Source: Paraspadella gotoi (taxonomy: Eukaryota > Animalia > Chaetognatha). Taken from it: a stretch of 64,000 bases of DNA. The DNA is taken from the NCBI GenBank assembly GCA_051294375.1, contig CM119264.1, positions 16,155,245-16,219,244 of the forward strand. The letters are read 5' to 3'. Shown here piece after piece: positions 2,293-51,200 of the stretch. Position 1 is the first letter of the stretch. Each line of letters begins with the position of its first letter. The position numbers and the translations under genes are program-made. The notes under the pieces are model-generated. The model did no database searches. It saw nothing but the letters and a program-made list of their open reading frames with translations, and was not told where the DNA came from.

Positions 2293-5200
2293 TTAGACAC
2301 GGCCATGTACTCTAAATCTGTAAAGGCAGGTGAGTTCTGAGTTGCCATGATTAGACAAAATTCTGAGTTCGATGACGCCAAATTTTTTATTTGAGTCAGA
2401 GGACGCCGAAAAGTGCTGTAAAGGCTCCGAAGACGACGGTGGGATCTGAATGGGAGTGGGGCAAATTAAAACAAGTTTGAGCAAACAATGTCGGATCTGC
2501 CAACGATAATTAAGCGGTAATCAGCTAAATAATAGATAAATAAATAAATAAATAAATACTATTATAAAAATAATTATAAATAAAATACAAATAATTTTTT
2601 TTAACTATTATTATTTTTTCCAACATTTTTAAAATAACTTGCCTCATTTTTTAAAAATAACTTGCCTCATTTTAAAATAACTTGCCTCATTTTTTAAAAT
2701 AACTTGCCTCATTTTAAAATAACTTGCCTCATTTTTAAAATAACTTGCCTCATTTTTAAAATAACTTGCCTCATTTTTAAAATAACTTGCCTCATTTTTA
2801 AAATAACTTGCCTCATTTTTAAAATAACTTGCCTCATTTTTTTAAAAATTAACTTGCCTCATTTTTAAAATAACTTATGGCACTCCATTTTTAAAATAAA
2901 CTTAGCCTCATTTTTAAATTAACTTGGCTATCATTTTTAAATATTTTAAATTTCCTTTATGGAATATTAATTCTATATCGGTCCGCCTAGCGACTAGCGA
3001 CTAGCGCGAACAAAAGGGCATTTCGTGGCGAGGCGGACCGATATGAGAATAACTGGCATCATTTTTAAAATAACTGGCATCATTTTTAAAATAACTGGCA
3101 TCATTTTTAAAATAACTTGCATCATTTTTAAAATAACTTGCAACAATCTTTTAACTTTCATTATTTTTTCAATATGCATAATAGAGTAAAGTGAAAGTTT
3201 AAAATCAAAATTTAGCAGTTATATCTTGAAAACTATCATATTAGTGAATACTAATCTGTAGTTATTTTTCTTTTTTTATTAATATAGTAACCCAGTCAGC
3301 TTATTTTGTATATAGTACTACCCTTATATGATGTTAAAATTTCAAAATATTTTTTTTTAAATTCTGATAATAGATTCAGATTCCTCGTAAAAAGTTGATG
3401 AAAAAAAATAAACCTTTTTCAAAAATGTCATTAAATAGGTTAAAATTACAAAACTATATTTTTAAGCTGGAAATTAAAAATCAGCATCTTAAATATAGTT
3501 TTTTACATTTTTGACTAACTTAATGAAAGAATTTTTAAAAACGAATTATACTTTCTTATATCAACTTTTTGCAAGGAATCTAAATCCGATCAGAAAATTT
3601 AAAAATTTGTATTTTGAAATTTGAGCCTATTATATACTTATTACTATATATAAATATAGCTTACTGGTGCCCACTAATGTATAAAATTAAAAAATAAATT
3701 TACTAAAGTATTTTTATTCATATTTATTTTCATGTTTTATATGCTAAATTTTAATTTTATAAAATTTTATCATTTTCACATCACTCTAATGCATAATTTT
3801 TTTAACTTGCATAATTTTTTCAAATTGCATCATTTTTTCACTTAATTAATAAAAATTCAAGTCAACTTGACTTTGGTTTTTTCCATGCTCACTGATTTCC
3901 ACTCCTGGATTCCATCTAAACTATATCCAGCTTCATCAAACACTTTCCAACGAACACAAAATTTAATCTCAATCTAACCATCCAATTATGATTAATTCGA
4001 GTAATTATGGCTTAAAAAATAGTAAAAAAGATTTAAGTTAATGTTTCTTTTGTTTTTTCCATTTAAACTCATTTCCACTCACACGATTCCATCGAAACTT
4101 TATATCCAATTCAATCACACACTTTCCTACCCACACACGAAATTTCATTCCAATCCATCCATCCATTCACGAGTAATTGGAGTTTTTTGCTAAGTGGGGA
4201 CGGACAGACGGACGGACATATTTTTTTTTGCTTAATTTAGCATAATATGATCTTCTGATGTGATAAAAATGATTTACCGACAAGATTTAGGGTGGGACCG
4301 ATGGACCGACTAAGTGAATTATAAAGTCGAAAAAGAGAAAAAGAAAGAAAGCCCCTGCAGAGCCCAAATCGTTTTCGAATCAGCAGAAGCAGCTGCAGAC
4401 TCTTTTTTTTTATGATAAAACAAACAAAACATTTAAAAACTGTCCTCACCCAATTTCAAGGACCTCAATGATGAGAAGCTGTATATAAAATTTCAGCTTC
4501 ATACACCCAAATTTAATCATCAAAAAGGCGATCGATAAGTGGAACGCCGACGACAACGATGACGACGCCTACGCCATTTATGCGCAAAAGCGTTACAAGA
4601 TCGTTGCAAACGCAAAGCGATTGCGACGATAATAGAAATCGTGAGTAAAAAAACATACTTTGTATTCGAAAGTCCCCAGGGAAACTCCCTCGGTGTCGTG
4701 CTCGTCAGCTAAACCATAAACAGCAAATTCCTTGGGAGCAGAATCCACCAAGCCGGAGGGAGATACGGCCAGAGGGATGTGTTCGTAGCTAAAGCCAGTT
4801 ACAAATATCTGCGCCGCCAGTTGAATTACAAGGAAACCCTCGCTACCGCGAAACGCCCAGCACTGACCGGGGTGTACGTCAGGTTGAATTACGGTTCGGG
4901 GAGAGTTGTACGAATACCTGTTGATGAAGAAAGTGTTCGTTAGCAGCGTTTAGCTAGCAATATTTTTACGTTAAGACACCAAAATTCGTATACATCGTCT
5001 TTAACTAAAAAGTATAAACAATCCCATTAATTAGTTAACAACCCAGTACCGCACTTTTAGATATCACCGTAGATGAACTGCTTACCAGATCGGAAAACCT
5101 AACAGAGTAATCATCGCCGATCGTGAGGTATAAGTCTCAGAGCATCTTGTTGACAATATAGAGCCCCCGGCCGACTCCAAGGCATAGTCCGCTTTTCCAG

Positions 5201-8200
5201 TTTTATCGGCGGCAAAGAGGCGAATGTGCTCGCGAACGATGGCGGCCACGTGCTCCTCGTTCAACGCAGACTCTGGCACATAGGCTACAGCGCCCTTTGC
5301 AGATTCATCTATCAAGCGACTGCAAGACAGCTTGACTTCGTCGGCGGAAGAGGCAATGGCATCTTCAGTGGCGGAACGAGACTCGGCGATCCGGGACGCG
5401 ACGGAGGCCCCGATCTCAGTTTGCAGCGCAGTGAGGCGAAGATTCAAATCCTCCTCACGCGACGACAGAATGCCGGTGAGATATGATCGGAAATTGGCGT
5501 CCCCTTCGTCCGAATAGAGAGAAGAGAGCTGTCCCTTAACAATTTTTAAGATGTCCTCGTTTGAGACGGACGAAATTTTTTGGCCATTCGCCGAAATGTC
5601 GCTTTCGGCTGCGAGCTTGATGGCTGACTCAGCCTTGCCGCAACAGCTGGAAATTTGCGCTTCGTTGGACAATTGCAGTTGTTGCAAAGAGGCGATCGAA
5701 GAACCAAGGTCGGTGAGTTGAGTTTCAACGCGACGGAAGTCCAAGTTGAAGTTCGTCTGACAAAGTTAACATTTTTTTTTTCAGTCGAAACAAAACGCTC
5801 AGTTAAATTACGTATATTTTTATTATTATTATTTTTATTATTCAATTCTTTTTTTTATATTTTACTATTATCTGTATCCTTTATTTAGGGAAAAAAAAAA
5901 GGTATTGTACTCACAATTGATTTGTCATTATTTTTAGAGGTCACTACGATCTGGTCGACTTGCTTCTTCAGAATACCGACGGAAGCCTCCAACGATGCCT
6001 GCAGCGACTTTAAAGATTCTAAGTTGGCTTTAACATCAGCGAGAGCTTCATTGACGTGCTTGTTATTAGCGAAAGATTCCTTTTCGGCACTACTTTTCGT
6101 AACAGTGGAAAGTTTGGCGAGAGACGACTAGAAAAAAGAGAAAAAAAATCAATTCCTTGACAACGGGTCACTTTCATATGGAGACTGAGCCATACCTCAA
6201 GTTCCTTCATCCTAGCCCCCAGCGCGGATTCGATGTCTTCCTTTAACCTCGAGTTCCGCTCATTTTGAAGGGCTATGTCTTCTACGCGAGCTCCCGCAGC
6301 CTGGACAGCACGTTTGTTTTCTTCCAAAGTCGCCTTCCAGTTCACCTGTTCTCTCACCAAAGCGGTGCCGATCAAAGTCTCCACCTCTGATGAGGTTAGT
6401 CCGCGGGGGGCTGACTCGTCCGCACGTTGGGCGACGACGGAGTTTTTGATTTGTGTAGTAAATTGCGATGACAAACGAAATTCAGCAGCTGCCACGGCAG
6501 CGGCGGTCTCAGCGTCGCGTGCCGCGATGAGGTTCTTAGTAGTCGAATCGATGAGGGATTTGATTTCGTCAATAGATGGTCCGCAACATTTGGCTGAATA
6601 GTCGATTAATTTTAATTAATTTTAAAGGTCTTAATTTTAAAAGTCATCCATCTTGCGCAATTGCAATTTTGAAAGATTAAACATAACTTGCCTCCAACTG
6701 CAGCACCGACCAGTGTTTCTTTAGACGCGGCTTTCACATTCGGTAAATGAGGCTCGGCCTCGATCGGGATCACATCTTTTTCAGGGGTTGTTTGAGTCGC
6801 AGGCACAACTGACATAAAAACTTGCCAGAATGAATAGAAGAAAGCGGGAATGAGCCTGAGCGCCATCCACATGAGAGAAACTGATATTGACAAAAATTTG
6901 AACAAAAATTAATACCTGTTGTTATACAGATCCGATTGACTCTCCTGCCAATTGATTTAGATGATGGCCTCAAAGAAACAGAGGAGATCATGAAAAATGC
7001 AAACGTCAAAGACGCTCTTTACTTACCGATGTAAGATGATCCTTGAATAACTCCGACATAAAGTGCTTGACCAACAAAAAGCAAGAAATTTGACAGAGCG
7101 CTTCCGGCGCAATCCCGCAGCCAAACTAAGCCAGTGAGATTTTGTCCAATCTCACTCCACCCAGATAATGTCCATCCGGCCGCCATGTCGCCAAACGCAA
7201 GCAGCCAGCGCCATAGGATCGTGCCGGAAGATGAACAATAATAAGCGACGCCACCGAAAAGAGAGGACATACCGATGGATACCCGATCCATGACTTGTAA
7301 GATAAAGTCACAAATGAGAGAAAAATAGTAAGAGAATTCGCTTGATAACGAAGGAACGACTAGGAAGAACCTAAGGAAAAATAATAACGCAAACTTCAAC
7401 ATCGATTCATAAGACGACCATAACTAATTAATAAATAGAACCTGGAGAAGCCGTTCTTTATCCTCGATCCAAGCCCCAATCCTATCTGCCAACAATCGGT
7501 AAAGCCCGAAGCAGTCGCCTCTTTAGTACGCGAAAAGGCACCGACGATTCCGCCAACAAAACCAGATCCGCTGCAAAAGTCACCCAGTTTTGCGACTAAA
7601 GCGCAGACGAGATCGAAGGCAGAGATCGCTAACCATTTGGCCGTCTCAAATGCAACCAACACCCATGCCGAGACAGCTTCTTTTCCAGTGACGATGTAGT
7701 CGGCGCAACGAGAAGCCAAAACCGATGTCGTTCGAGTCACAGAAAATTCTCCATCCGACAAAAAACCTTAAAGTGAAGTATTCAGTATTAACCATTGAGA
7801 AACTTGTGGTTCATTTCAAATAGTTCCTCGAATATCTTTGAATTATGCATATGGTAGCAGTTAATATTATTTCTTTCAATTCGGTTATTATGATGAATGA
7901 GTCGATAATTTTGTATTGATTGTACAAATTTCGTAACAGTCAGCTCCGTAGTATTTTGATGCTAGTGCTGAGTATGTTACCATGATGGGAAAAAAAATGT
8001 CGCGATTAGAAAAGTCGGTTAATTTCATTATCAAATATATTTTTTAGCCATTAAATAAGTTTTACTATGTAATATGACCTCCCTAGGACTGAATAAAAAT
8101 ATTATTTTTTAACAGCATAAAATTATTTATTGCATACAATCACTTCCAAAAGAGGTGGTCTCTGTTTGATCAAAAGGACTATTCATATTATTATTATTTT

Positions 8201-10228
8201 TTTATTATTATTTTTATCAGATTTTGGGCAAAAAATTGTCTTTATTCCTACTCCTTATGTCGTGGTCTTTCACATCCTTGACCAGTTTTACGTACGGCCA
8301 AAATTCGGGGGCATTGTTCTCCCAACTTGATTTCCGTATAAATATAATAAATAAATAAGAAATAAATATAATGACTGATTAAGTCACTTAAGTTTGACAA
8401 TACCAACATTATATCATCAATAGTCTGTAGGCACCTAGATTATGAGATCAATCATAAACCGTCATTTATTATTAATTTACCAGAGAGAGGAAAAATCAAT
8501 AGAAGCAGCAGCAGAAACGGAAGGCACCAGCAGCAGACAGCCTTCCAACCCACTCTTCGTTTCGGCAACAGGGGGGTTTCCGCGTCAGCCGCATAATAAA
8601 TTTTTTCGCTTCGTGTAGTACGAACAGCAACTGGAAGATAAAAGTGAAGATGAAATACATGTTAAAAAAATCTTAAAAGTATAGTGACGCCAGACGTTAC
8701 TATTAAAGAAAATTAATGAAAAAATCAGGAAAAAACGAATGATTGATGCGAAAACGAATTATTAATGCGATGATAACCAATTATTGATGCGATGATAACC
8801 AATTATTGATATGATGATTACAAATTATTGATACAATGATACCAAATGATTGATGTGATTGAAGAGACAGTAATAATTGTTATGAGTTGGTGTTACAGCC
8901 TGATCTGAACGGTTCTGTCACTGTGTTACAGGCCACTATATGAGCTTAGTAGGGTGGATGACGGAAAATATCACAGGGCCTCGCTATCGAGCCAAAACGA
9001 CTACACTATATGAGCTTAGTAGGGTGGATGATGGAAAATATCACAGGGCCTTGCTATCGAGCCAGAACGACTACACTATATGAGCTTAGTAGGGTGGATG
9101 ACGGAAAGTATCACAGGGCCTCGCTATCGAGCCAGAACGACTACACTATATGAGCTTAGTAGGGTGGATGACGGAAAATATCACAGGGCCTCGCTATCGA
9201 GCCAGAACGACTACACTATATGAGCTTAGTAGGGTGGATGACGGAAAGTATCACAGGGCCTCGCTATCGAGCCAGAACGACTACACTATATGAGCTTAGT
9301 AGGGTGGATGACGGAAAATATCACAGGGCCTCGCTATCGAGCCAGAACGACTACACTATATGAGCTTAGTAGGGTGGATGACGGAAAATATCACAGGGCC
9401 TCGCTATCGAGCCAGAACGACTACACTATATGAGCTTAGTAGGGTGGATGACGGAAAATATCAAGGGCCTCGCTATCGAGCCAGAACGACTACACTATAT
9501 GAGCTTAGTAGGGTGGATGACGGAAAATATCACAGGCCTCGCTATCGAGCCAGAACGACTACACTATATGAGCTTAGTAGGGTGGATGACGGAAAATATC
9601 ACAGGGCCTCGCTATCGAGCCAGAACGACTACACTATATGAGCTTAGTAGGGTGGATGACGGAAAATATCACAGGGCCTCGCTATCGAGCCAGAACGACT
9701 ACACTATATGAGCTTAGTAGGGTGGATGACGGAAAATATCACAGGGCCTCGCTATCGAGCCAGAACGACTCCTTTTTTTTTTAATAGATGTAATTGAGCC
9801 AACATCCCACCCACCTCCAGAAATCCGTTTTGACTTTAATAATGACTAAAAACTTTAATCTTCTCAATTCCTAAGTTCATATCTATTAAAATATTTTTTT
9901 AAAAATTAAAAAAAAAAAGGAATTTATGCTGTAATATAATATTATAGTTTTCATTTATATAAGTTGTATTAACTTTTTCTTTAAATATTTGTTTCTTTTT
10001 TGTTTGTTTTTATTCTTTTTTTTATTTTAAAATCTCTTACTACAATATGCAAATGAGAATTATAACCATTCATGGTTTTGAGTTGAATATAAACGTAGTG
10101 GAGTTTGAAAAACGAAAGTGGTTAATGGTTGACAACGATTTTAATTATTTGAGATTAAAGACCAAGTCTTATTACATCAATGACTTTATTTTAATGGTAA
10201 CTTACCAAATGTTAACTCTGCTTCCCTG

Positions 10229-10264
<36 letters not shown>

Positions 10265-13200
10265 AAATTTAATTTCTTTTTCCCTCACATTATCTTAATT
10301 GCATGAACTAGTCAACTTGAGTGAGGCCTATTTTTTCTTAAATGGAAAAACCGCCAAAAAACCGCAACAGAGGGTAATAAATGGGAAATACTCCTGACTA
10401 TTTAAATACCATCCAAGGTTCAATTTCGTTTAACCCTAGTTAACCCAGACCTTAAAGATGAAAATTTGGAACTTAAAGGAAAGAAAGTACTGAGAAAATG
10501 ATGCTGTCATCTGCATGCCACTGTATTTCTAGTATGTCGACTTTAAATCATTGAAAGAAGCATGTCAGCAGAAAACCCTATGAAAAGAGCTTCCGATAAA
10601 TGGTAGAAAAAGTAAATATTTTTTCAAAATAACTATTTTACCTAAGGTTAAAGTCCGCCAGGTCGAAAAAAGTTAGGAAAAAATCAATTTATGTCGAAAA
10701 ATGACAACTTGTAAACAAAAAATCACCATGACAACAAACCAAATAGCTAAGGTCAGATATCGCGGACTCAGAACTTTAAATTAAACCAACTTTACGAAAA
10801 TTTATTGAGATTGTAGCTGTGATAAAGTTGGCCCGGGATATTTTCCGTCATCAGGTAACAGTGTGCATGCCTCCTGCACCAATAGCTGCTGATGAACAGT
10901 TGGTGGATTTTAGTCCACCATATGATGATGCCAAATTATTGGTGTGATGATAGGGAATCATTGATGGGAAAATGTTTAAAAAATGCAATAAAATAATTTA
11001 AGATAATAAGTTTGAGTTGAAAGAAATGAGTTGAATGAAATGAGTTGAAAGAAATGAGTTGAATGAAATTAATTGACTAAAACTAAAATCATGAAATTGG
11101 TACAACCAATATAAAAATTATCCATTCATTTAATAAATAAGCTATCTTGCCCATGACTTTGGACAGGCTTTGTTGGTTTAAGGCCTCCATCACTTTTACA
11201 AGATAATGACATAGCAGGTCCCTGCAAGCTTTCAATCAAGACTCTCTCACAGTCTGGTTTATTCACTCCCAGAGTACCTGGCTTCCCTATCAATGAAGTG
11301 GTTTTATTTTATTTTATTAAAATAAATTGAGATAAATTACATTTGAATAAATAAAGTATGAGCCGAATTAAATTGAACGAATTTAATTAATTTAATTTAA
11401 TTAAAAAAATGAACAAATGTGGGAAAGATAAAGAGATAGAAAATGAGAGAAAATGAGGGGAAGCAAAAAAGCGAAATAAATAAGGTTTCGCAATGGTAAA
11501 ATGAAAACATGAGCGACTGCGAAAAAGAGAGAAAAATCCAGTCGATGCAGAGATCAACAAATAAGAAGAGGCAGTGACGGAGAAATAGAGAGAGCGACAT
11601 ATAATTAAAGTAGTTTTTATATAAAAATAAATAATTTGTTTGTTTTATCTAAAGACAATTATGAGTATTGATATGAAACTGACAATTTCAAAGATCTTGA
11701 TGATTAGAAACCTAATTTTGTAATTTCCTATGATTTCACTATTTCCCAAGCGTGACGACGACGACTCAAAGAAGCAATAGTAAACGATTATGTCGCCCAA
11801 GACGGGCCAAAGCCCTTCTGGCGAGATAAAAAGATAGGTCGAAATAATGTAGTTCATTATGAGAGAATAAAGAGAAAAAGACTTGATTTGACATGAAACG
11901 GGAGGTATAAGCATAAAGAGATTCGCGTTTTAGAAGTCTCTTACCGGGTATTTTGACTGCTTCTTCATCCGAAATTCCAACAAGCAAAGCTTTGGCTTTC
12001 GAAGGCGCCGAGGAGATGCTGACGTTGCCGAAAGATTCTGTGACATCCGGTTCTTCAAAGTCGACATATTTCGGGAGGAAAAGATATGCGAAGCATCGGC
12101 GAAACGGAAACTAAAATCGTAAATAATAACGACTGTTAATTACGATAGAAATCGCAAAATTAAACTCCATACAGTACCGTCAAAGAGAAAAGAATTATCG
12201 AAGCAACATGGGAAGCCAAATTCCAAGTAGAACCCAATGGTTTGACGATGGCGAAGCCAAGGAAACGAGAAATCCCGGCGCCGATACGGGAGATGCCCTG
12301 GCCAGACGAAATCTTTCCAAACAGGCAAATTATTTCCCACAGCCATGATAACGGTTGAACCAGAAAGTATAACAGACTGATCAAAAAATGATAACTTTTA
12401 GTACGTCATGTCTCATATTTTCTTCTTCTGAAAGGAGAATTAGAAAACTTACCCTATAAAAAGGTAACATAGTCCGACGGCTCCTCTTTTACAAAAAATA
12501 AATGAGGCCCTCCATTTTTCCTCCTTGAAAAATTGTACCACGCAGAAGAGCGGCTGAATCATGAGCGACCTCGCCAAAAAGCAAATAGCCGTCCATACCC
12601 TTTGCGCGACAGTTCTAAAACCAGATGTGGCGCCGTTGAATACGCACGAAACTGTGGCAATGACTCCAGATCGTAAGGATGTGAGCGGGTAAACTATAAC
12701 GCAGTTGAAGCAAGTTGATAGGACGAAAAAGACGAAAGAGAAAAAGCCCGCGAAGAAGTTTATAAAGCCGTCCAAGATCCCAACCAAAGAGGATTTGAGG
12801 GGAAAAGTGCGAAAGCACTTCAGGATGAATCCAAACAAGCGATACAAGGCTACGAAGGGAGCACTGACGATATAGATTAAGTAAATGAAAATTACTTTGA
12901 AAGCACAAACGACGTTCTGCGCTACGAAGGATAATTGGGTCGCTAACCAAGTGACTATCGACATTACATTGACAGCCGCCACCTTGGTCAACCAGCAAAG
13001 CCAATGCCAGAGAGTGAGGCCACCGTATCCGCAAAGCTCCGCTAAACGACGCAACCCTTCACCGATCCACAGAGCCGGGAAATGAAATAAGAATGTGTAA
13101 GTGTAGTAGATGAAGCCTACGAAGACCGAAAATACGCCGGTAACAGTGGACTTTAGGACTTCGTAAATATTATGTAGACCTGACAAAAATGAATCATATA

Positions 13201-16200
13201 ATAGAAAAGCCGAAACACATAAGTATTAAAGTATTCTCTTCAACCTGATGAGCAGTATTCAGAGAAGACCGTCCAAGTGGTACAAGATTTGTTCTTAATC
13301 CATTCAGCCGGAAATGTTAACATCGTAACTACCGAAGGGGCCCGTAACCAAGCGTCTTTAACTGTGATGTGAAATCATGTTTTATCAGAAATTTAAGCAA
13401 AGTACTAGACCTCCCAAAATTATCTCATATTTAAAGTTGTTGATTCTTGCAAAGTTTCGTAGTCAATTTTTAGTGAAACAAGTTTGAGCAAACAATGTCG
13501 GATCCGCCTACTATAATTAAGCGGTAATAAGCTAATCCGATGATAAATCATGGTAATTTTTCTGACTCTCAATTTGTGATTATAACAAATCATAACAGAC
13601 ATCTTAATATATCTCACGGTTCTTTTTATAGGAGGAAAAAGAAAATGGAAATATACCATCTCTGGAATGATAAAAACCTGAAAGGTTGCTGTCTGGACAA
13701 GAGCTTAGGCTAAGTCGAAAAATTTGTCCAAACTCAGTTTTTTTTTAAATTGCAGTTGAAGTTGGTAAGTTAATTTTTGAGAAAATTTGATAACTTTTGT
13801 ACTAATTTTGCAAAATATAGACTCAATTCAAACATCTATATGTCAAACGATATCAGTAAACCGAGAGCTTTAATTTAAGACCACTCCCAACTTTCTCCGA
13901 CTTTTGGTTAAAAAGTTATTAATCAAAATATATTATTTTTTCTTTAAAAAAGTAATGGAATGGTGAGTATTATTGAGAATATAATAAAACTTTAATCTAA
14001 AAAATTGAGGATACCAACAATTTTTGGGGCTTTTTTTGGTAGTACCTCAATAAATATTTATTGTAAAGAGTTGGCAATAGGCTCAAAATGAAGGTCACAT
14101 TATAATTTTTCGACTTAGCCTAAGCTCTTGTCCAGACAGCAACCTTTCAGGTTTTTATCATTCCAGAGATGGTATATTTCCATTTTCTTTTTCCTCCTAT
14201 AAAAAGAACCGTGATCTATGAACAAATCTATAAACCAATTGATCTATCAATCATTACCAGTCGCTGTGCTAATACCAACTTGCATTATTTGGTAAACTTT
14301 CATAATTTAATCAACTAGCATAATTAAATCAACTGGCATAGCTTGGTCAATTGTCATAATTTGGTCATCTGGCATAATTGATCAACTGGCATAATTTGGT
14401 CAATTGTCATAATTTGGTCGATCCATCCATCCAATCTCGAATAATTGGAGTTTTTTGCTAAGGTGGGACGGACGGACGGGCATTGCATTTTTTGCATAAT
14501 TATAGAGTCGGGATCTGCTTATGAGCAGATCCGACTAAAAAACGATTATAACTATAAAAAAATTCTCAGATTTTGATTTATGGATTTTCATCGCCACTTT
14601 TGGTTTTTAGAAATAAAACGTTTTTATGCTGATAAATAAGATTTTTCTGGATATTGTATACTATATAGTTTTAGATTATTTCTCCTTTTTTATAATTTAA
14701 TTCTAAATTATATATTCAAAAATATTAATTACTTTCATAAATTTTATCTCGAAATTACAAAAACTTAAATAATCAATATTTTTGAAAGATTTGTCACATA
14801 CTGTTCTTTCAAATTAAAATGATGAAATAATAAGTTATTCCAAATATTTATTAATTATTATAGAATCAAAAATGAAACTGCGCCTCCTGTATAACTGTCA
14901 ACCTCTTAAAAGTAGGGAAAGTGGCAGGAATCAGGAATTTATGGTTCCAAATGGAACCGGGATTCTTCATGGTTCTTCCCCACCAACAAAGTGAGCATCT
15001 GCTCTGCAAACGCGACATCTCCCGAGAGAAAAACGAAGAGGAAACCTCTTCCCGCCTTCTCTTCCCCCTCCCGTACGCTACCTCAGTACGCCGACACGAG
15101 ACAGAATCACTCGTAACCAAGCAAACCAAGAGGGGGGAATCCCGCGAAGACTTCCGGTGAAGCGCCACGCCCACTTGACCGGACGTCGTAGAAGGGGGGG
15201 ATGAGAAACCGCAAAAAACCAGTCCATGGACGAAAGCCGGGCCTGGAGAAACTGACGGCCAGACGAGGCAACGGCCGAAAGAGCTGTCGGGCGATCAATC
15301 GGCGTCCTTAGACGTCCCTGGAGCCCCGCCCCTACGCTTGGGAGGCGGCGAAGACTTGCGAGGCCGGTAGGGACGGCGAGCGGGACTACGCGGACTGCCA
15401 CGCCCACGCTTGCGGCTAGCAGAACAGGCGCAATTGTGTGGCGCCCCGGAGCGGAGAAGCGAAGAATGGAACGCTTGAGTGACGTCTGTGGAGCGGTCTC
15501 CGAAAAAGAACGACGTGGAGGGCGGAGAACTGGACAGAACTGTCTTGAGATCCGAAGGGGCAGCGTCGACAACTAAGCGCCGAGACTCAGAGAGGGCCGA
15601 ACCAAAAATCGCCGCCAAACCCGACGAGGCGTCTCCAAGGGGCTTGGCAAGATCGTCAAGGTGGCCTGCGTCCACTGCACCGGGCCCCTCCGAGCGAAGG
15701 GCCTAAACCATGAGGCGGAGAGCGTCAGCGACAGAAAGGACAGCATGAGCGGACGCTCCGGCGTCCCTCATGATGCGCTCAAAAGCCTTGAAAGCGCGCG
15801 TCGTCTTGGAGTCCTTCCGAACGGCGTCGAACTGAGCAGCAAGGCAACTCTCTTGAGCAGGAGGACGAAAAATCCGCCGGCGAAGAGACATCCGACCAGC
15901 GCCGGAAACGCGTATTGGCGGAAAGCACGTCCCATGACGGTAAAAGAACGTCGTCCTGGCCAACTCTGCGCAAATCCCTCCACTGCTGTAGGACCCACTC
16001 CGAAGGCTGTACAGAAGCACGACGAGACAAGAAATTGTCAAACCCCGCAGCAGACTCTTCAGAGGAGGAACCCTCCTCTTGATCCGGAAACGGAGGCGTC
16101 GTTCGTTGACTTGCGCAGATGGGGCTCGACGAGGAAGGCGTGACGCAGTCACCCGCTCGGAGCGTGAAGGCCGATCCGCCGCCGAAGAGGGCCGCCAAAG

Positions 16201-19200
16201 AACGCGAAGACTCCAAGTCGCTGGCGAACAAACGAAGATCGACGAAGAACGGCGAAATGGCGAACAGAGGCGTCCAAGAACCATGAAGACAACGTACATG
16301 GAAAAAAAGAGAAATCATTGAAAAATGACAGTCTCAAAAAAAAGAACCCCAAAAAAACACCCCACCAAACAAGACAAGCGAGCCTGAGCCGCCCTCCACC
16401 ACCGGTGGTGCCAGGGGTGGACGGTGGGTGGTTGTTGGTGGGGAAGAACCATGAAGAATCCCGGTTCCATTTGGAACCATAAATTCTATCATGTTGTTCT
16501 TCCCACCAACAAAGTGAGCCTGTAACAAGACCAGGCGAAGGCCCGACAAAAAACAAACAAAGTCGAGTTAGGTGGGGCACAGGAGGAAAACCCCTCTGTA
16601 CGCCGAATGTACGCCAAAAAAAAGGCGAAAAACAAAAACGAAAAGAGAACTCACCGCCAAAGACTCTCCAACTCGGAACGAGACGAGCGGCGAAACTCCT
16701 TAAATTTGCGACGAACGCTAGAAAGAGCGTTGCTAATTTGGAGAAGAACTGCCTCCATCTGAAGGGGCATGACTTCGGCCTGACCAGAAAAGCCCGGAAT
16801 GGCTGATGGTGGAGGCGGTGGTGGAGGCGGCGGCGAAGGCGGTGGCGGAAGAGACATGAGGGTAGTCGAGTTGAAAACACGCGCCTCAGTCCAAAAAACG
16901 GAGAGCACTGGACAAACAAGGGGGCCGAAAACAAGGTTCTTCCCCCTGCAGCCGTACTAAGCGCCGTGGGCAAACGAGAGGGCCGAGTCGCAGCTCTTCC
17001 CTCCGCAGCCGCGCAGGGTGCGTCGAGGGCAAGCGAAAGGGCCGAGTCAAGGCTCTTCCCTCCGAAGCCACGCACAACGAAGACGAAAAAGATGGCGGCC
17101 GTGAAGAGAAAAACTTCAAAAAGCCACGTGTTGAAGAATATCTGTATTCTGAACTCCAAAAAAAAGAAACGAAAAAATATGCAAAATTATTCAACAAAAA
17201 TAATCAAAAAATATTTTCGTAAAAAAAACGGGAGACTGTGAGCGCAAAAGCGCGAACAGAAAGAGTGATTCTGTCTCGTGTCGGCGTACTGAGGTAGCGT
17301 ACGGGAGGGGGAAGAGAAGGCGGGGAAGAGGAGGTTTCCTCTTCGTTTTTCTCTCGGGAGATGTCGCGTTTGCAGAGCAGATGCTCACTTTGTTGGTGGG
17401 GAAGAACAACATGATAGAATCAAAGCTTGCACAGCATTCTGTGGATGCTTGCAGAAGGTCAATGCGGCTGAGGGTAGATTTTTTTAATAGATTGTATTGT
17501 TTAAACACTTTTACATTACATTTAGTGAAAAGTTTAATTTTTTTTAACAAGGAATTTTTTTTTAACAAGGAATTTTTTAATTTTCTATAAAAAACGGATA
17601 TTTTTCGGCTTTAATCAGCGTTTCACAATTTGTAAAATTATTTTATCAAAATTATGTGCAAAAGAAGAGGGAGAGAGAGATAGTAAGAGAGAGTAAAAGT
17701 TTTCCAATACAGTTGAAAAAAGGATAGTGGTCAGAAGTGAGGACAGGCTGATGGTAAGGACAGATAGAGTAAATTTTGAAAAGAAGAGAAGAATGGTCAG
17801 AGAGAGAGAGTTATGCAGAGAGAGAGGGTTAGTAACTAATCTATTTATGCAATAGAGAGAAGGAAAATGAAATTTGAAAAATACATTAAGGAAGGATGGC
17901 TATTGGCCAAGTCACACACAATCAAGGGGGGCCAGCTCATTTTAAGCTTTATCTTATTCTTAAACTAACTGATGGGTCGGTCCATCATCTCTATCACTCT
18001 ATGAGTAAAGTCAAAGGAAAAGTCCAAAAAAATAGGCAAAAAAAGTATATTCTCTGAGAGGGAGCTCTTGAGCTGAAGTAGAACCCAAGACAGAACTAAA
18101 ATCTCTCTTTGCTCCTGTCGTGCTCGATGAGGAGGAAGGGAAAGGGAGGAAAAGAGGCGAAAGAGGAAGAAGAAAAGGTGTCTCGAGCGAGAATGGGGAA
18201 GAGAAATGAGGGAATCCAGTGAAATCTACTCATCCCTCTATCTGTTTAACTTTTTCATTCTCTTAGCTATTCCCTCACTAATATGTTTTTGATATTTTAA
18301 TTTTCCCCTCTCTCTATTTTCTCTTATTTATTAGTAGTTAATTGTCGATAATTAATTATTTAATCAGTCTAAAAATTTTATTTCTGTTGTATATGACATA
18401 AATGTATTAGTTACCAACCTTCTTTCTCTGCATATCTCTCTCTCCCTTTCTCTCTCTCAGACCATTATTCGTTTCTTTTCAAAACTTATTCTATCTATCC
18501 CTACCTTCAGCCTGTTCTCACCTCTGACCACTATTCTTTCTCAACTCTGTATTGAAAAATTTTTACTCTCTCTCTCTCTCTTCTTTTGCACAATTTCGCA
18601 AAATAATTTCACAAATTGTTAAACGCTGATAAAGGCTACACAACGAAACGAAAGTAATATCACAATAATATATTATAACAACATTAACAAATTCAAATAT
18701 TTGTTTTAATATTTCCAAAAATTTTTATGGTGATATTCGTTTTCTCTAGTAAAATTTCTGTCATGCTATTTAGAATTAAAAAAATAAATTTACTTTTAGG
18801 GATAAGAAAACATCTTCATTGACTGATTGAAGGAAAAAATTAAATATTTCTAATGGTTTCTTTATAAGCTGTAAATAGACCGGAGTAAACTATGAAATAT
18901 GAAACTAAAAAGTAGAATAAATTTTTGGTTTAAAGTATCATTTTTAAAGAATAAACTAGCTATATTTTTTATTATTTATAAAAATTAAGACACTATTTAA
19001 ACAAAATTTGAACTACTTAATTGAAGGTAGGGGACAAATTACAGCATGAGAAGTCTGCACCTTAATTTTTTTTCCGTTATAACAATAAAAGCTATAAAAA
19101 AAAAAATTCATTTTTTGGTCCTTATCCTGTATTTAGTCATATCTTTCATAGCATATAAGATTTTGCATTAATATTTTTTGTACTTGTCTGAAACATCATG

Positions 19201-22200
19201 TTTTTTTAGATAACTCATTCAAAGGCAAGATTTAAAGTCACCGAAATTTTTTTATTTCTGCATAGTCTCCGCCACGTTAACTTGCATCGTGTCATAAGAA
19301 GCTCTGCAAGAACCTAGAACTTTTAAAAATTTTTGATATTTCTGGGAAAGTACTATGTATGATTCAAAATAATCTTACCGGCAACGAAAGCAGAAACTGG
19401 CAATAGCAAAATCCAAATAATAAATCTGTAAAGGATAGATAAAGGACGAAGTATCCCAGAGAAAACTGATGCTGAACCGCGTTTGAAGCCACAGAAGGCG
19501 GGGCCTACAAAACGTCTCCTCACAGAATCTGTTTAAGAAGAAAGCGATTTCAAACCTTGTAATTTTGTTATTTTTACTACATATTGTAAGGAAAAATAAT
19601 ATAAAAAAATCTTAAAAGCATAAGGATCGTCGCAATTGCGACACTCTGATAATCAGTTAAAGCACTAAAAGTTGTACTAGAAACTTCACAGTGTGTTTAA
19701 AAATTTCAGTTGTATGGTTTAAAAAAAAAAAAAAAAATTAATGCGCGCGAATAAAAACGACTGAATGTTTTGAAAACATCCACTACGCCTTGTAGTAGCT
19801 TGAGATTTTATTTTGTTTCATAAAAGAAAAAAGACGTTTGCCACTCGGATCGTTCAGACATGGCAGGACGTTAAGTTTTGTCTCGATATATGGTCCCACC
19901 CCTGTATATATTTATTATTTATTCTATCTATTTTAAGCGCCGCATAGTAGGGAGTAATAAAACAAATTTATTACCTGTTATAGCTTTCATGGACGTAAGG
20001 CAGAACTTGAATGAATTAACGATGGCTATACACGAATGTCGAGCGCCAATGGCCAGGGAACAACATGCCGCAGTTGCGCCACGAAGTAGAGTTGCGATGA
20101 CGGAAGAGATGAGGTGAATCGGTAAGAGGAGTAAGGACGAACCTTTTGAAGAGATGGAAGAGTTTCGTCCAACGGACTGATTGGCACCCGACAACCGCTG
20201 GATGAGCCAAACCGCTCCGAAAACAGGAGCAAAGACAACAGAGGCGACGGCCTTGATCAAAGTCCCAGCAAAATGAACGAGTAGAAAAAGAAAATTGAGA
20301 AGCCAAGAATGCAAGCGAGAGAAGACTGAGTAACGGGCTGAAGGGCTAAACTTCCTTTGCTTCTTCGATTCTGCGGGAGAAGAAAAAGAACAACGAAAAA
20401 GTGTCATATCCAAGAAATAACTCGAGACAGACTCACCAGAGTCTTCGTCGTCGGAGACGTCGGCTTCGAATCCCTCTACAAGACGCATTTTTAGTACGTC
20501 TTCCGACGAAGCAACGGCGTGAGAAGACGACCTCCATAAGTTTGAGGAGACGCGCTGCGAATTTTCCGTTGCTTTGGAGGAGATAGACGCGCGAATCCGT
20601 TGTCGAGCCTCTAAAGTCAGACAAAGAAGATTTGTTGAGTTAAGCTGGCGACCTTATCATTCTCTCTTCCGCGTATCTCCTTATCGTCATTTTATTGTAA
20701 ATCACTTTACCCCTCGAAATTGTACAATTTTTTCCTTTTTTTTTTCAATTAACTTTTTTCAATTAACTTTTCTTCTCTCCTACTAGGATTTGTCTTTTAT
20801 ATTCTCTACTATGAGCATTTTCCCTTTACTTTCTATAAAATTTTGCTCTTCTGTCTGCACCCACTAGATCTTCACATGAATTGCTTTATACAAAATAGCA
20901 AATTTTTACATGTTTTAATCTTAATAGATAGATAGCTGTACAAACAAAAGAGCATTTTTAAAAACAAAATAATAATAAAATTTAGTTTAAGTACATCCAC
21001 CATAGGTTTTAATATTTTTTTCTGAAAAAAAAAAAAAAAAAAAAAAAGTCCCATTATTTTTTGTTGTTTTTAACATATTCTACTAAAGTGCTCTACAAAA
21101 AAAGAAGCTTTTTGTAAGACAAAGGAATATTTAAAATAAATTTTAACTGTACCCACTACATCTTCACTTGCACCTACTCTTCAACAAAATAATAATTATT
21201 TTTATAAATTTCTATTATCTTAAATCTTTTAAAAATTATTTTTTGATATTTTTTCTTATATTCTATTTTATTTTATTTCTTATTCTATGTTTTGATAAAA
21301 CATTTTAATCATATAACATATTTCAAAAGCAAAATAATATTGTTTTGATTTATAAAATGATATTAGTGCCACAGTAACAGTTCAGTTTAAGCCCTTAAAA
21401 GTGATTTACATGTATTGGCGCATAAATTTTCCTATCTTTTTTAGAACGAAAAGTGTTATGAGGATCATTCCGACAATTCACACCTATCGAAAGCTTGAGA
21501 AGCGTTTCCAAGTCAACGTCAGGTACTCTTTCGCCATCGTCTTCGTCGTCACTAACTTCCGGTTGGTAGAACTGGAGATGAGAAATGTGAAAGTCGAGTC
21601 CGAAGTCATCGCCGGGAAATCTTTGTCGCGCCAACGCACACAGAGAACACCGGCTGTAGAGGTGACGCAGGTTTGACGCGCTACAAGGAATAAGAAGGGA
21701 TCGGTGGGTTAAAGTACAAAATTATAAAATTATTAAATAAAATTTATAAGCGGGCTTACCTGTATAGCCCGTAGGATTTGTGCAACCGCCTTCTGCTCAG
21801 GTTAGGAGACACTATCTTCTTTCCGTCAGGGCCAATGGTCGTATCTTGAAGTTGACCGAATGACCGATTCATGGAGATATCAGCTCCATGTTGATGAACA
21901 TCCGTTGAGGAGGCAGATTTTCCCCAGGCCCCACCTTTGCTGGATCGGGAGGACTTTGCCCCGGCCTTAAGAGCCGATGACAATAGTTTCACCGTTTGTT
22001 TTTTGTCGTTTGAGATGTTGTCACTTTCACCGCCGTTTGGTAATGCGGCCGTGGATGTGGTGGCGTCATCTGGCGCTGGACCGTTTTCGTCGTAAGCGCC
22101 CCCGTAGGCGATTATCGTCTCGCTTCCGTTCAATTCCATCGCGTCTGCGTGTCGCATGTAGATGCCAGTGTGCGAATACGTATAATCTAAAGAAATAGTT

Positions 22201-45224: not shown

Positions 45225-48200
45225 CAGTAGCCGGCTTCCCTTGCCACCACCAAACATAGTGGCCAGCAGGGGTCAACCCCATGGCGACGAAACCGTCGTC
45301 GCCACAAAATATACGTAGAACCAAATTCCTAAACTCGATCCCAAACCTTTTTTCATAATGTTTTTACATTTTTGGATGGAGAATGACTGGAATAATGTAA
45401 ATCTTAAGTTACGTCTAAATTGGCCAATTGGTTTAGAAGATATCGACCAAAAACAACCAAAATATTAAAGTTATTTATGAGTTTAAATTTTATATTGATC
45501 AGTTAAGATATGCCTTGGCAATTAATGTATAAGTTGGCTTGTAAAATCGGGTTTAATTTTTCAACTCACTTTTTTAGATTCAATTTTTTTCTCTTACTTT
45601 CAATAAGTTTTCTGAAGAAATTTGAAATAAAATAATATTATTATCTTCTGAAAGCCCTTTCAAATCTAAAGAGAATGACATACTTATAAATACTGTAGTA
45701 TAAAATTTAACCGGCCCAGCTTTAATTTAATTAGGATACTCCAAAAATGATACTTATATAAATAATAATATTTTATGTTAGAATAATTTTGACTCTCTTA
45801 ATTGAAACAAGGCTGGGCAGCTTAATTTTTATGTTAAGGCTTTTGTAAGTATATCATTCTCTTCATTTTTTTAAGGGCTTTCTGAGGATATTAATATTGT
45901 TAATATCTTAATAAATACTTTGTTTAAAAAAGAGCTAAAAGTTGAAAAAAAAAATTGAATTTAAAAACTGAGTTGGAAAATGAAACCTGATTTTACAAGC
46001 CAACTTTCTCCACTCATTGCCAAGGCATATCTTAACTGATCAATATAAAATTTGAACACATAAATGACTTTAATATGTTCTACTCAACTAATTTTTAAAA
46101 TCAATGAAATAACCACTAGTTTGCAAATGACAGCGTATTTCTACCGGCGCTTGTAAAATTGTCACCATGTATCTTATGAATTCTAAAGATATTTTTATAA
46201 AATGAATTAGAAAAACTGACCAGTATTCGATGAGATTGTTCTGAAGAGGGTATCCAGTGAGAACGACCCTCCGCCGGGTCTTTACCGTCTTCAGGCACTG
46301 GGCTGTCGAGGCGTTACAGTTTTTGATACGATGTCCTTCGTCGCAAATGATCAAATCGGGTCCCGGGGACGTCAATGCCTCCCGCATCTGCATTGCATAC
46401 GTATATCATACTTATATCATGTCAGAACATCGAATTATGATAAATTATGCAAAAAAAACGATGTCCGTCCGTCCGTCCCACCTTAGCAAAAAACACCAAT
46501 TACTCGTGATTGGATGGATGGATTGGAATGAAATTTTGTGTGTGGGTAGGGAAGTGTGTGATTGAGCTGGATATGAAGTTTCGATTGAATCGTTTGAGTG
46601 GAATGAGTTTAAATGGAAAAAACAAAGAACCTGTTTCACTAATTGATTATGCTTCTTTTTCTTTTTATTTTAAATGTAAATGCAAGATGTATTAATTAAT
46701 CAAATAATTAATTAGTTAATTAATCAATTAATTAATCATTAATTAATTAATCAGTTAATTAATCAATCAAAACAAACATTTTGGATCAAATTAATTAATT
46801 AATTGCATAATTAATTAAATAATTAACTTGAATAAATTAATTAATAATTAAATAATTAATTATTTATTAATTTATTAATTAATTAATAACCGATAATGAA
46901 CGTGTGCAGATCCGACATTGTTTGCTCAAACTAATTGATTATATTTCTTTTTTCTTTTATATTAAATGTAAATGAAGGATGTATTAATAAATCAAATAAT
47001 TAATCAGTTAGTCAATTAATTAATCAATAATTAATTAATTAGTCAATAAATCCGTCCCATCTTAGCAAAAAGCTCCAATAACTCGTGATTGGCTGGTTGG
47101 ATTTGAATGAAATTTGTGTGTGGGTAGGACAGTGTGAGATGAAGCTGGAGATAAAGTTTCGATGGAATCGTGCGAGTGGAAATGAGTTTAACTAAAAAAA
47201 ATATGAGTCACATTTACTTGAATCTTTTTGTTTTCACGATTCTGTTAGTCCTGCAATGTTACTTTTTAAACCATAATTACTCGAATTAATCATAATTGAA
47301 TTAATAGATTGAAAAGGAAAGTGTGTGAAGAAGCTAGATATAAAGATTACGGAATTGTGCCTGTGGAAATGAGTTTAAATGGAAAAAAAATAATTCACAT
47401 TTTCTTGAATCTTTTTTATTTATGATTACTAATAAATGTTATTATTAATTAATTAATTATTAATAATAATTAATTTGAAAAATATACAAGTGAAGAAATT
47501 ATACAAGTTGAAGAAATTATACAAGTTGATAATGAAATTTACAATTGAAGAATTATACAAGTTGAAGAAATTATACAAGTTGAAGAAATTATACAAGTTG
47601 AAGAAATTATACAAGTTGAAGAAATTATACAAGTTGAGAAATTATACAAGTTGAAGAATTATACAAGTGAAGAAATTATACAAGTTGAAAAATTATACAA
47701 GTTGAAGAAATTATACAAGTTGAAGAATTATACAAGTTGAAGAATATTACAAGTTGAAGAAATTATACAGAAATTATACAAGTGAAGAATTATACAAGTT
47801 AAAAAATATACAAGTTGAAGAAATTATACAAGTTGAAGAAATTATACAAGTTGAAGAAATTATACAAGTTGAAGAAATTATACAAGTTGAAGAAATTATA
47901 CAAGTTAAGAAATTATACAAGTTGAAGAAATTATACAAGTTGAAGAAATTATACAAGTTGAAGAAATATACAAGTTGAAGAAATTAAAAAGTGAAGAAAT
48001 TATACAAGTTGAAGAAATTATACAAGTTGAAGAAATTATACAAGTGAAGAAAATTAAGTTGAAGAAATTATACAAGTTGAAGAATTATACAAGTGAAGAT
48101 ATAAGTTGAAGAAATTATACAAGTTGAAAAATTATACAAGTTGAAGAAATTATACAAGTTGAAGAAATTATACAAGTGAAGAAATTATACAAGTTGAAGA

Positions 48201-51200
48201 AATTATACAAGTTGAAGAAATTATACAAGTTGAAGAAATTATACAAGTTGAAGAAATTATACAAGTTGAGAAATTATACAAGTTGAAGAAATTATACAAG
48301 TTGAAGAAATTATTACAAGTTGAAGAAATTATACAAGTTGAAGAAATTATACAAGTTGAAAAATTATACAAGTTTGAGAATTATACAAGTTGAAGAAATT
48401 ATACAAGTTGAAGAAATTATACAAGTGAAGAATTATACAAGTGAGAAATTTACAAGTTGAAGAATATACAAGTTGAAGAAATTAACAAGTTGAAGAAATT
48501 ATACAAGTTGAAGAAATTATACAAGTTGAAGTAAATTGAAATTATACAAGTGAAGAAATTATACAAGTTGAAGAAATTATACAAGTTGAAGAATTATACA
48601 AGTTGAAGAAATTATACAAGTTGAAGAAATATTATACAAGTTAAGAAATTATACAAGTTGAAGAAATTATACAAGTGAAGAAATTATTACAAGTTGAAGA
48701 AATTATACAAGTTGAAGAGATTATACAGTTGAAGAAATTATACAAGTTGAAGAAATTATACAAGTTGAAGAAATTTTGCAAGTTGAAGAAATTATGCAAG
48801 TTAAAAAAAATGATGCGAATTGTAAAAATGATGTAAATTGAAAAAATGATGAGTTGAAAAATTATGTGCGTGGAAAAAATTATGCGAGTTCAAAAAATGA
48901 TGCTAGTTCAAAAAATGATGCGAGTTAAAAATTTTTTTAAAAAATTAGCAGATTACCGCTTAATTATTGTAGGCAGATCCGACATTGTTTGCTCAAACTT
49001 GTTAATTTTTAAATGACCTTTTTTACGGGGTTTCAAAAAAATAATTACTGAAAATATTCCCTTTTTATAAAGTTGAAGCTCTAAAATACTAATTAAATAA
49101 CTCGAGATAATTAGTACGTTGAAAAAGTTGCGCCTCTTAAAAATATTTCTTGCCTGTTCTGAGTCAGGGATAATCTCTTCTCCCATAATCTGTTATGAAA
49201 TTTTTACAAACTACTAATGCGCTGATGAAGACTCGTATGAGAGTCGAAACAGGTCTGTTCTTTAAAAATAAAATCGTTGCCTCAAAAACCAATTTTCGTT
49301 AAATATCATACACAACGAAACGAAAGGATACTAACGAACAATGTCTACTTTTAAATTCATATTTAACATTGAAAAAATCGTCATGGAATGGGTTTGCAAA
49401 TGACAGCATTTTTTTACCGGCGCTTGTAAAATTGTCACCATGTAGCTGGGTTATACCAAATATATTAGTTATACTAATTTATTGATATTATTTTAGTCGT
49501 GTTCACAGATAGGGAAGTTTATGATTTTTTTAATTTTTTATCATAACGTGGAAGACGATGCCGCGAGCAGTTCACCGTCCGTATAAAAAAAACGTATAAA
49601 AAAAAAAAAGATTCAAAAAGTAGTTCCATAATGATTTTAATTCAAAAACTTAACCCACCTGCTTAAGAATCTCTTCAGTTTCGTCTTCTTCGTCGATGTT
49701 GACGCAAACGGGTTGCAGTCCAGGACCGCCTTTCTTTCGAGCCTGCTTTTTACGTTCCTTATTCTCATCTTTGTAAACAGACGATTTAACCTGGTTTTAA
49801 CAATTCTTAACATTAAAAGACATTGAAAGAGCAAGGAAGTCATGCGCATTGCGCAAGTACAGTTGGTGCAGAAATTACCTTATGTGAGACAAGCAGCCGG
49901 TACATCTCGTAGCCCATAAGCAGCACGCCGCCCTTTTCAAACCATTCTACGACCAGTTTAGAGCGGGCAACTGTAGTCTTGTACAACTCGTTTAAAGTGT
50001 ACACACGATAAGTACGTTTTCGTATTTCCTTCTCCTGCTCCTCCGCCTCTCGTAATTCCTTCTCTTTTCTCTCCGCCTCTCTCCGTTCCTCCTCCAATCT
50101 TTCAGCTTCTCTTCGCTCCATCTCCACTCTATCCGCTTCTCTCCTTTCCACCTCAATTCTCTCAGCCTCTCTCCGCTCCGCATCCCTTCGCTCCTCCATC
50201 ATTCTTTCCTCCCACATCCTTTGCTCCATCATAGGATCACCTCCCATCGCGTGATGAGTCCCCATCATAGGCGGCATCATGTGGTGCGGCATGTAAGGTG
50301 GCGGGGGAGGCATCATATGTTGGCCCATCATGTGGTGAGGCGGTGGCGGCATCATTTGCTGCCCCATCAAAGGGTGCGGAGGAGGAGGCGGCGGTGGCGG
50401 CATCATGGGGTGGTGATATTGGCCCATCATCTGAGGATGATGAGGTGGCATGATTTGAGAGTCCATCATGTAATTTTGATTAGACGGCGGGGGTAGAGGC
50501 GGTGGCTGATGCTGCGGCGGTGATTGATCCTTGGTCTCCTGTTTCAACTTTAACTCCTTCTCCTCCTTCTCCCTGTCTTTCTTCTTTTTTTTTTTCCCAT
50601 TGGGAGTGGATGGAGATGGTTCTTTTAATTCAGCTTTCTTTTTATCCAATACCTCTTGATTTGGAACCCACTGGTCAAACTCGTGGGCCCAGTTTTGCAG
50701 TGTGTTTACGGGGACAATCACGAGAACTTTGTTAGCCTTTGTCTCTCGCAGGAAAGCGTCGATGAAGGCGATCATCTGTAGCGTCTTTCCAAGACCCATA
50801 CTATGGGCCAGAATACACCCGAATCCTTGGCTTTTCTCGAACTTGGAAAGAAAGTATTGAATTGTTATAGCTATTTTAGCTATTAACATGTACTGTAATT
50901 AAGTCGACGAACCTGTTCCAAAGATTCGACGAGATTGTCGTACAAAAAGCGAATGCCGCCAACTTGATGGGGCTTCACTGCTTTGGTGATTTGCGGAGGC
51001 AAAAAAATGTCTGGATCTTCTGGAGGATGACCGAGATTGATCTGTAGTTAAGTTGTGAAAAAAAAAATTATATAAAACTTTGAAAAAATTTTAGGGAAAA
51101 CTGTAACGGGAACGTGGTACGGGGTCAGCTTGGGATCCAGCTTTGCAAGTAGTTACAAGGTCACACACCGAAACCCGCCACTAGAAAAAAATCGTCATTT

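Follow-up and report, generated by a model that had tools for sequence, protein, structure and literature searches.

DIRS-1 of Dictyostelium discoideum carries an ICR of 88 nt, split 33 + 55, and in the part of its description available (PMC7192593) an element lacking the ICR makes cDNA yet cannot complete retrotransposition. According to the same available text, the DIRS-1 reverse transcriptase appears to act in trans and endogenous DIRS-1 failed to rescue an ICR-deleted construct. In a survey of DIRS elements (PMC3266345, supplement S3) the ICR lies after the recombinase motif in all 28 annotated elements, which agrees with what the earlier reading of this DNA, made from the sequence only, had said of canonical DIRS1. 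Among the 28 elements tabulated the most frequent arrangement is ATT at the ends and AAT at the junction, and the words 'intron' and 'splic' are absent from the survey. Here we analyse an element in a stretch of 64,000 nucleotides of DNA (the window, to which all coordinates refer unless a related locus is named), in which the ICR lies in an intron of gag.

The element, its ends and its ICR

The element is of DIRS type and occupies 14936-17420 on the minus strand (2,485 nt), with ATT at each terminus, and belongs to a multi-copy family. The left inverted terminal repeat (ITR; 17263-17420, minus) is 95% complementary over 159 nt to 14961-15112, the right ITR proper, which together with a right extension bearing a terminal hairpin spans 14936-15112 (minus). 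The repeats are thus non-identical, with a right extension, as in DIRS1-like elements; the split direct repeats of PAT-like and Ngaro-like elements were not found, the ends being inverted repeats accompanied by an ICR. As to a target-site duplication beyond the shared trinucleotide, a joint between 14936 and 17422 resembles an empty site, but it stems from a divergent version of the flanking repeat and has 18 other letters in between.

No reverse transcriptase, RNase H, methyltransferase or tyrosine recombinase was found in the element by tblastn with the pol and recombinase of L006, one of the related loci described below, the sole match in the window being a relic at 54-56 kb. Since it has no reverse transcriptase, RNase H or recombinase, the element is a gag-only, non-autonomous DIRS-type retrotransposon. 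The spacer that separates the gag stop from the right ITR (15113-15294, minus; 182 nt) holds no ICR, no detectable recombinase and no significant match to pol, with a faint likeness to the start of pol by eye only.

The ICR (16432-16519, minus, 88 nt) had been described as the fused reverse complements of the two termini, and this is borne out at the level of single bases. The right end is matched in reverse complement by 16432-16486 without exception (55/55) and the left end by 16483-16519 (37/38, E 8e-11). The two halves overlap on AAT (16485-16483), matching the terminal ATT of the element at 17420 and 14936 as in DIRS1-like elements. The ICR is predicted to fold on itself (−45.8 kcal/mol, z −7.5); a search of Rfam with the hairpin gave one sub-threshold Histone3 hit, which was taken as chance. 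The distance to the right ITR, put earlier at about 1.3 kb, measures 1.32 kb, and the ICR interrupts gag rather than standing at the 3' end after a recombinase. Directly after it lies a short motif (16397-16428, minus) common to the related loci L007 and L004 and, weakly, L003. The score was reached by 0/1000, 0/1000 and 13/1000 shuffles for L007, L004 and L003, respectively, in 60-nt windows picked after the likeness had already been seen.

The element lies, in the same sense, inside an intron of a spliced host gene (5082-20653, minus), which from its translation may be a SUN-domain gene, though Pfam gives no support for this. Two MITE-like inverted-repeat elements flank it (13609-14219 and 17608-18636), and an empty-site form of the immediate flank is present in 4/4 sequencing runs. 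Elsewhere in the window are an exon of an ARIP4/RAD54L2-like SNF2 helicase (49840-50898, minus), with no close relative among the matches listed, and tandem arrays at 8864-9881 and 47126-48942, one of them made of a 70-nt unit (about 98% identity) and the other longer and more diverged. Matches to the host genes point to an animal and no further, the best local identities being 59-73% and spread over many phyla.

The gag intron in the window and in sequencing runs

The coding part of gag exon 1 (16655-16857, minus) starts with an ATG at 16857 and is 203 nt long, or 67 codons and 2 nt. It is followed by a GT-AG intron of 434 nt in phase 2 (16221-16654, minus), defined by the sequence and by one junction contig from run X7. 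The consensus donor and pyrimidine-rich acceptor that had been proposed are both present, as CG/GTGAGT at 16654 and ...GTTCGCCAG/ at 16221 (a slash marks the splice point). The interval is also U-rich as claimed, its T content being 39% compared with 25-27% in the exons; the 5' leader, with 37%, is equally T-rich. In the spliced form W-R is fused to D-L-E-S-S at phase 2, while in unspliced RNA exon 1 ends at a TGA lying inside the donor.

Exon 2 (15295-16220, minus) is recognised by homology to 23 proteins (HMMER with the gag end as query, E<=0.001, 29-43% identity), and the upstream gag frame matches the profile of these homologs with E 9.7e-5 and a probability of 58%. In this copy the exon is broken, with a frame break near 15870, indicated by homology on either side and with mixed contig support, and a stop at 15705. 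Contigs from all four runs show single-base length differences from this copy at 16189, 16102 and 16079. These cancel out. The difference at 16102 is carried by no more than about half of the depth in every run, and nearly all contig depth in 4/4 runs lacks the stop at 15705. Over the five stretches between the family length differences the spliced phase contains one stop (15705), compared with 3 and 10 in the other phases; five indel rows from the comparison with the contigs were not included in this assessment. The fusion in phase 2 described by the sequence-only reading therefore stands as a join, and it applies to the common contigs of the family but not to this copy alone, whose gag is broken. 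Nor did that reading mention the decay of gag or the status of the element as a non-autonomous derivative that retains gag only.

Little is matched by gag beyond its own homologs: Pfam has no family at E<=0.01, no PDB sequence is better than E 0.52 and Foldseek with the gag fold gave nothing at E<=0.001. DIRS ORF1 has been linked to LAP2alpha. A model of a gag homolog gave Z 6.9 with the LAP2alpha dimerisation domain (134 aligned, rmsd 6.2), and unrelated helical proteins scored just as well.

Four of the 11 listed sequencing runs were used (X1, X5, X7 and X9), none of them recorded as RNA, and the kind of run was judged from joined host exons. In X7 and X9 one contig each joins two host exons, the edges of which (end at 13177, start at 19975) are 270 nt apart in the contig, 6.8 kb apart in the window and marked by GT donors, and these runs were therefore treated as RNA-like. 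X1 and X5 cover the host intron and exon evenly and were for that reason treated as DNA-like.

The predicted junction is present in X7. The joint 16220-16655, skipping 434 nt with ends CT..AC, occurs in that run only (one of the two RNA-like runs and neither of the DNA-like ones) in a contig of depth 152, beside an unspliced contig of depth 111. It is a single short contig, the shorter side of which is 29 letters, under the 31-letter bridging bar, from a run automatically labelled 'DNA?'; a junction bubble in a 31-mer assembly would, we infer, have a length of about this order. The other RNA-like run, X9, does not have the junction at an unspliced depth of 590. This is weak evidence, because the element in X9 has about 0.26-0.49 of its depth in X5, much as unrelated flanking repeats do (0.29-0.52). 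The unspliced depth of 111 in X7 is 0.08 of the 1,361 in X5, and in both X7 and X9 the unspliced depth is no higher than that of background repeats. We conclude that the reality of the gag intron is supported, by one RNA-like junction. The second acceptor suggested at about 16520 fared less well, being used by none of the eight joints that make up the complete listing for 15780-16900 across the four runs. In the 5' leader there is a further acceptor-like, pyrimidine-rich site at 17149, where an X7 contig ends exactly at 17148 and an X9 contig continues through; it may mark a further intron, a host-exon join or a trans-splice.

Splicing of this kind could derive from host read-through transcripts of copies that sit in host introns, as exonisation outside the element's own cycle. 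The present copy is in just such a position, in the sense of the host gene, contigs cannot reveal where an RNA starts and X9 lacks the junction. The splice, however, connects the gag body, in its only open phase, with a start that the element itself encodes, and the donor and acceptor contexts, CG/GTGAGTT and AG/CG, are found again in relatives whose gag is only some 30% identical. We regard exonisation as very unlikely.

Element contigs in X5 have depths of 1,274-2,381 compared with 15.1 for a unique host contig, which, as a rough guide and not a count of copies, makes it likely that the family has around a hundred copies by order of magnitude. A contig from X7 (15082-15870) spans the gag end to the right ITR unbroken, so the gag-only form is common and not a private deletion. 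The decay of this copy, which has no pol or recombinase, might be read as the mark of a one-off rearrangement or an assembly artefact that put the ICR into gag, with splice signals arising by chance. Intron sequence flanking the ICR is nevertheless covered at family-level depth in 4/4 runs, the junction falls at the predicted bases and the related locus L003 has the same order of parts; this explanation is hardly credible and we consider it largely refuted.

No intronless joint was found in the DNA-like runs X1 and X5, where joints at single-copy depth are listed (156-270, 14-36), contigs showing presence rather than absence. The result bears on whether spliced RNA could itself replicate by borrowing an ICR in trans, in which case splicing would only tune the output of Gag and there would be no hard switch. 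While the apparent action in trans of the DIRS-1 reverse transcriptase lends this some plausibility, an intronless form is missing from 2/2 DNA-like runs in a family of such a size, and the ICR-deleted DIRS-1 construct was not rescued by its endogenous counterparts (available text of PMC7192593). Borrowing in trans is quite unlikely.

Related loci and the position of the ICR

From an alignment of 13 of the 23 gag homologs, eight metagenome loci (L001-L008) were obtained among 49 pattern matches. Five of them share one assembly prefix and may come from one host lineage; two lineages are counted in all. Pol directly follows gag in five of the eight (L001 and L004-L007, L004 and L005 being near-identical), and L006 extends to the recombinase, which no related contig passes. 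RVT_1 was detected in 3/3 pol ORFs scanned (E<=1.5e-24), and L006 gave a Phage_integrase match with E 1.1e-4 that does not reach the curated cut-off. The relatives show the motifs DLKDAY, YLDD, TDAS, AD..SR, AFPP and PFW and the xSTR recombinase motif. No relatives of gag were found at any locus in five scans of viral contigs or two of prokaryote genomes, and a word-based search for the gag end among longer proteins gave 0/6,490 candidates.

Three loci reach far enough upstream to be informative on the ICR (L003, L004 and L007), and all three carry an ICR or an ICR-like hairpin before the gag body. In L003 the first seven bases after an AT-rich flank are those with which the window element also begins, and the ICR at 720-753 is the exact complement of the left end of this locus (34/34). 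The order of parts is a GTGAGT donor at 626, the ICR and then, 700 nt on, the gag body (E 7.6e-13), with the contig ending before pol. L004 and L007, both of which have an open pol, contain a segment colinear with L003 (65-68% identity over the region) that is predicted to fold as the same long hairpin (z −6.4 in L007 and −5.0 in L004). The ICR in these two was called from colinearity and shape, their contigs having no element termini, and the L003 ICR alone gives no blastn hit against either at E 0.1. The GTGAGT donor is also present in L007. Conservation of the ICR and splice sites among relatives is seen in the L003 ICR, the ICR-like hairpins of L004 and L007 and the donors of L003 and L007; it does not extend to the phase of the intron, which is 2 in the window element and 0 in L007.

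These loci also bear on whether autonomous elements keep a normal 3' ICR in addition, the 5' duplicate serving to let internally deleted elements survive, so that splicing would leave autonomous RNA able to replicate. The related contigs end at or before the recombinase, leaving the region beyond it unseen, and every one of the 28 published elements has its ICR there. An ICR-like segment is, however, retained in the pol-bearing L004 and L007, 76% identical between the two. A second argument against comes from a decayed DIRS pol/recombinase relic in the window itself (53960-56217, minus), which is cut by an assembly gap. Though it has no DNA similarity to the main element, its identity to L006 is 35% over 106 residues and 33% over 126. 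No ICR-like inverted repeat follows its recombinase (score 17, mean of shuffles 18.7), its end not being proven intact, and the likeness of its right end to that of the window element is not significant (46/1000 shuffles). Taking both sides together, we think a retained 3' ICR unlikely.

The predicted exons of L007 (231 nt, 55 nt and the gag body) would join in frame, judging from sequence alone. The 55-nt mini-exon has the same length in 3/3 intact loci (L004, L006 and L007). With it goes a second intron, a well-conserved GT-AG intron of about 370 nt with no ICR, kept in four relatives (mini-exon and intron region at L007:825-1251, L004:308-734, L006:77-502 and L008:10-375), while its donor is absent from L003. 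A consensus fold of this intron is unsupported, with two-sided changes in 3/89 pairs. Since the four relatives keep an intron free of the ICR, a lock by the ICR would not be the sole way in which introns are kept; a genome pool that is never spliced would explain the retention of all of them. When aligned with intron 1 of the relatives, the window intron gave scores reached by 0, 1 and 9 of 300 shuffles, whereas with intron 2 there was no alignment (223 and 207 of 300 shuffles). Together with the matching junction contexts, this suggests that the window intron and intron 1 of the relatives share descent.

In L003, L004, L006 and L007 the open frame runs for 149-161 codons before the gag body has its first Met. 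The gag stop is a TGA followed by CTA, CTG or CTT in 6/6 loci that show it (L001:1000, L002:1121, L004:1649, L005:943, L006:1420 and L007:2178), and pol lies in frame behind it in five of the six, L002 ending too soon. These stops resemble UGA-CUA(G), a read-through context (available text of bioRxiv 10.1101/2021.04.18.440353), and it would seem likely that the relatives make Gag-Pol by read-through. The corresponding context in the window element is TGA-TCG. Two gag homologs, P0050 and P0059, have predicted N-termini with 20-25% Phe, compared with 6% overall, as if the U-rich end of an intron had been translated; this was not seen in six other homologs checked.

Splicing as a probable switch and comparison with known systems

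This is a multi-copy, gag-only DIRS-type element with its ICR in a gag intron, and we think it probable that splicing yields an mRNA that cannot be copied and that only unspliced RNA serves as template. Because the donor contains a stop, unspliced RNA would give only a peptide of 68 residues, and cDNA made from spliced RNA would have no ICR and hence no circle junction. Copies that lost the intron would die out, and for this reason the intron would be kept by a retrotransposon. In the autonomous relatives the gag body has its first Met about 150 codons deep and pol is in frame behind one TGA, so that Gag as well as Gag-Pol would depend on the spliced RNA. The proteins would then need to work in trans on RNA that carries the ICR, to the advantage of non-autonomous families such as this one. 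The behaviour of ICR-less DIRS-1, which stops after cDNA (available text of PMC7192593), makes a switch the natural reading. As first put forward, the switch is thus supported in part, by the junction in X7, by the lack of an intronless form in X1 and X5, by the 5' ICR or ICR-like segments of the relatives and by the DIRS-1 data; the part involving a second acceptor was not upheld.

A wider interpretation, which we hold with only slightly better than even confidence, is that the element belongs to an undescribed clade of animal DIRS elements in which the only ICR has moved to gag intron 1. Retroviral logic would thereby be inverted: spliced RNA would be the sole mRNA for Gag and read-through Gag-Pol and unspliced RNA would be genome only, while loss of the intron would kill a copy and the proteins would be bound to act in trans.

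Retrotransposons are expected to lose introns because spliced RNA gets copied, and placing a sequence essential for rebuilding the ends inside an intron would be a simple way of keeping it. With an intronic ICR, the mRNA and the genome RNA of DIRS elements would be physically separate. Several questions on DIRS elements also become testable: whether an ICR can work from any position, whether it is needed in cis and whether the proteins work in trans. For annotation there is a warning, in that assuming a 3' ICR and an unbroken gag misses gag starts and ICRs in this lineage. No description of a 5' or intronic ICR was found in the literature searched, the scope of which did not take in the papers of Goodwin, Poulter and Butler, the Xenopus supplements or Repbase/Dfam, and novelty is accordingly provisional. 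The word 'intron' is absent from the available parts of PMC9210276, PMC3783388 and PMC2685390, and those of PMC5718144, PMC9940879, PMC13465315, PMC12477816 and PMC3212892 hold nothing relevant to such an ICR.

Compared with DIRS-1 and DIRS1-like elements, the window element has the same non-identical inverted ends, right extension, 88-nt ICR with 55 nt of it given to the right end, and ATT ends with an AAT junction, while its relatives share the pol and recombinase motifs. In DIRS1-like elements the ICR is 3' of the recombinase motif, whereas here it is 5', inside the gag intron, and pol and recombinase are absent. As the 3' position of the ICR does not hold, we place the element from its sequence features as a variant that would work like DIRS1 and not as a canonical member.

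In retroviruses other than RSV and HIV-2 the packaging signal can be lost on splicing. In RSV and HIV-2 it is present on both spliced and unspliced RNA, and in retroviruses only unspliced RNA serves as genome, as proposed for the window element (both from the available text of PMC5035971). The retroviral unspliced RNA is also the mRNA for Gag and Gag-Pol, however, a role that here would fall to the spliced RNA. The plant Ty1/copia elements EVD and BARE1 devote a spliced subgenomic RNA to Gag, and BARE1 keeps separate RNA pools for translation and reverse transcription (EVD and BARE1, available text of PMC5580714 and PMC3735527). Gag would likewise come from a spliced RNA in the window element. 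The EVD/BARE1 splice, as far as those texts describe it, trims the coding region of an LTR element, whereas the splice here removes a non-coding ICR that would rebuild the ends, and no complete Gag is predicted from the unspliced RNA.
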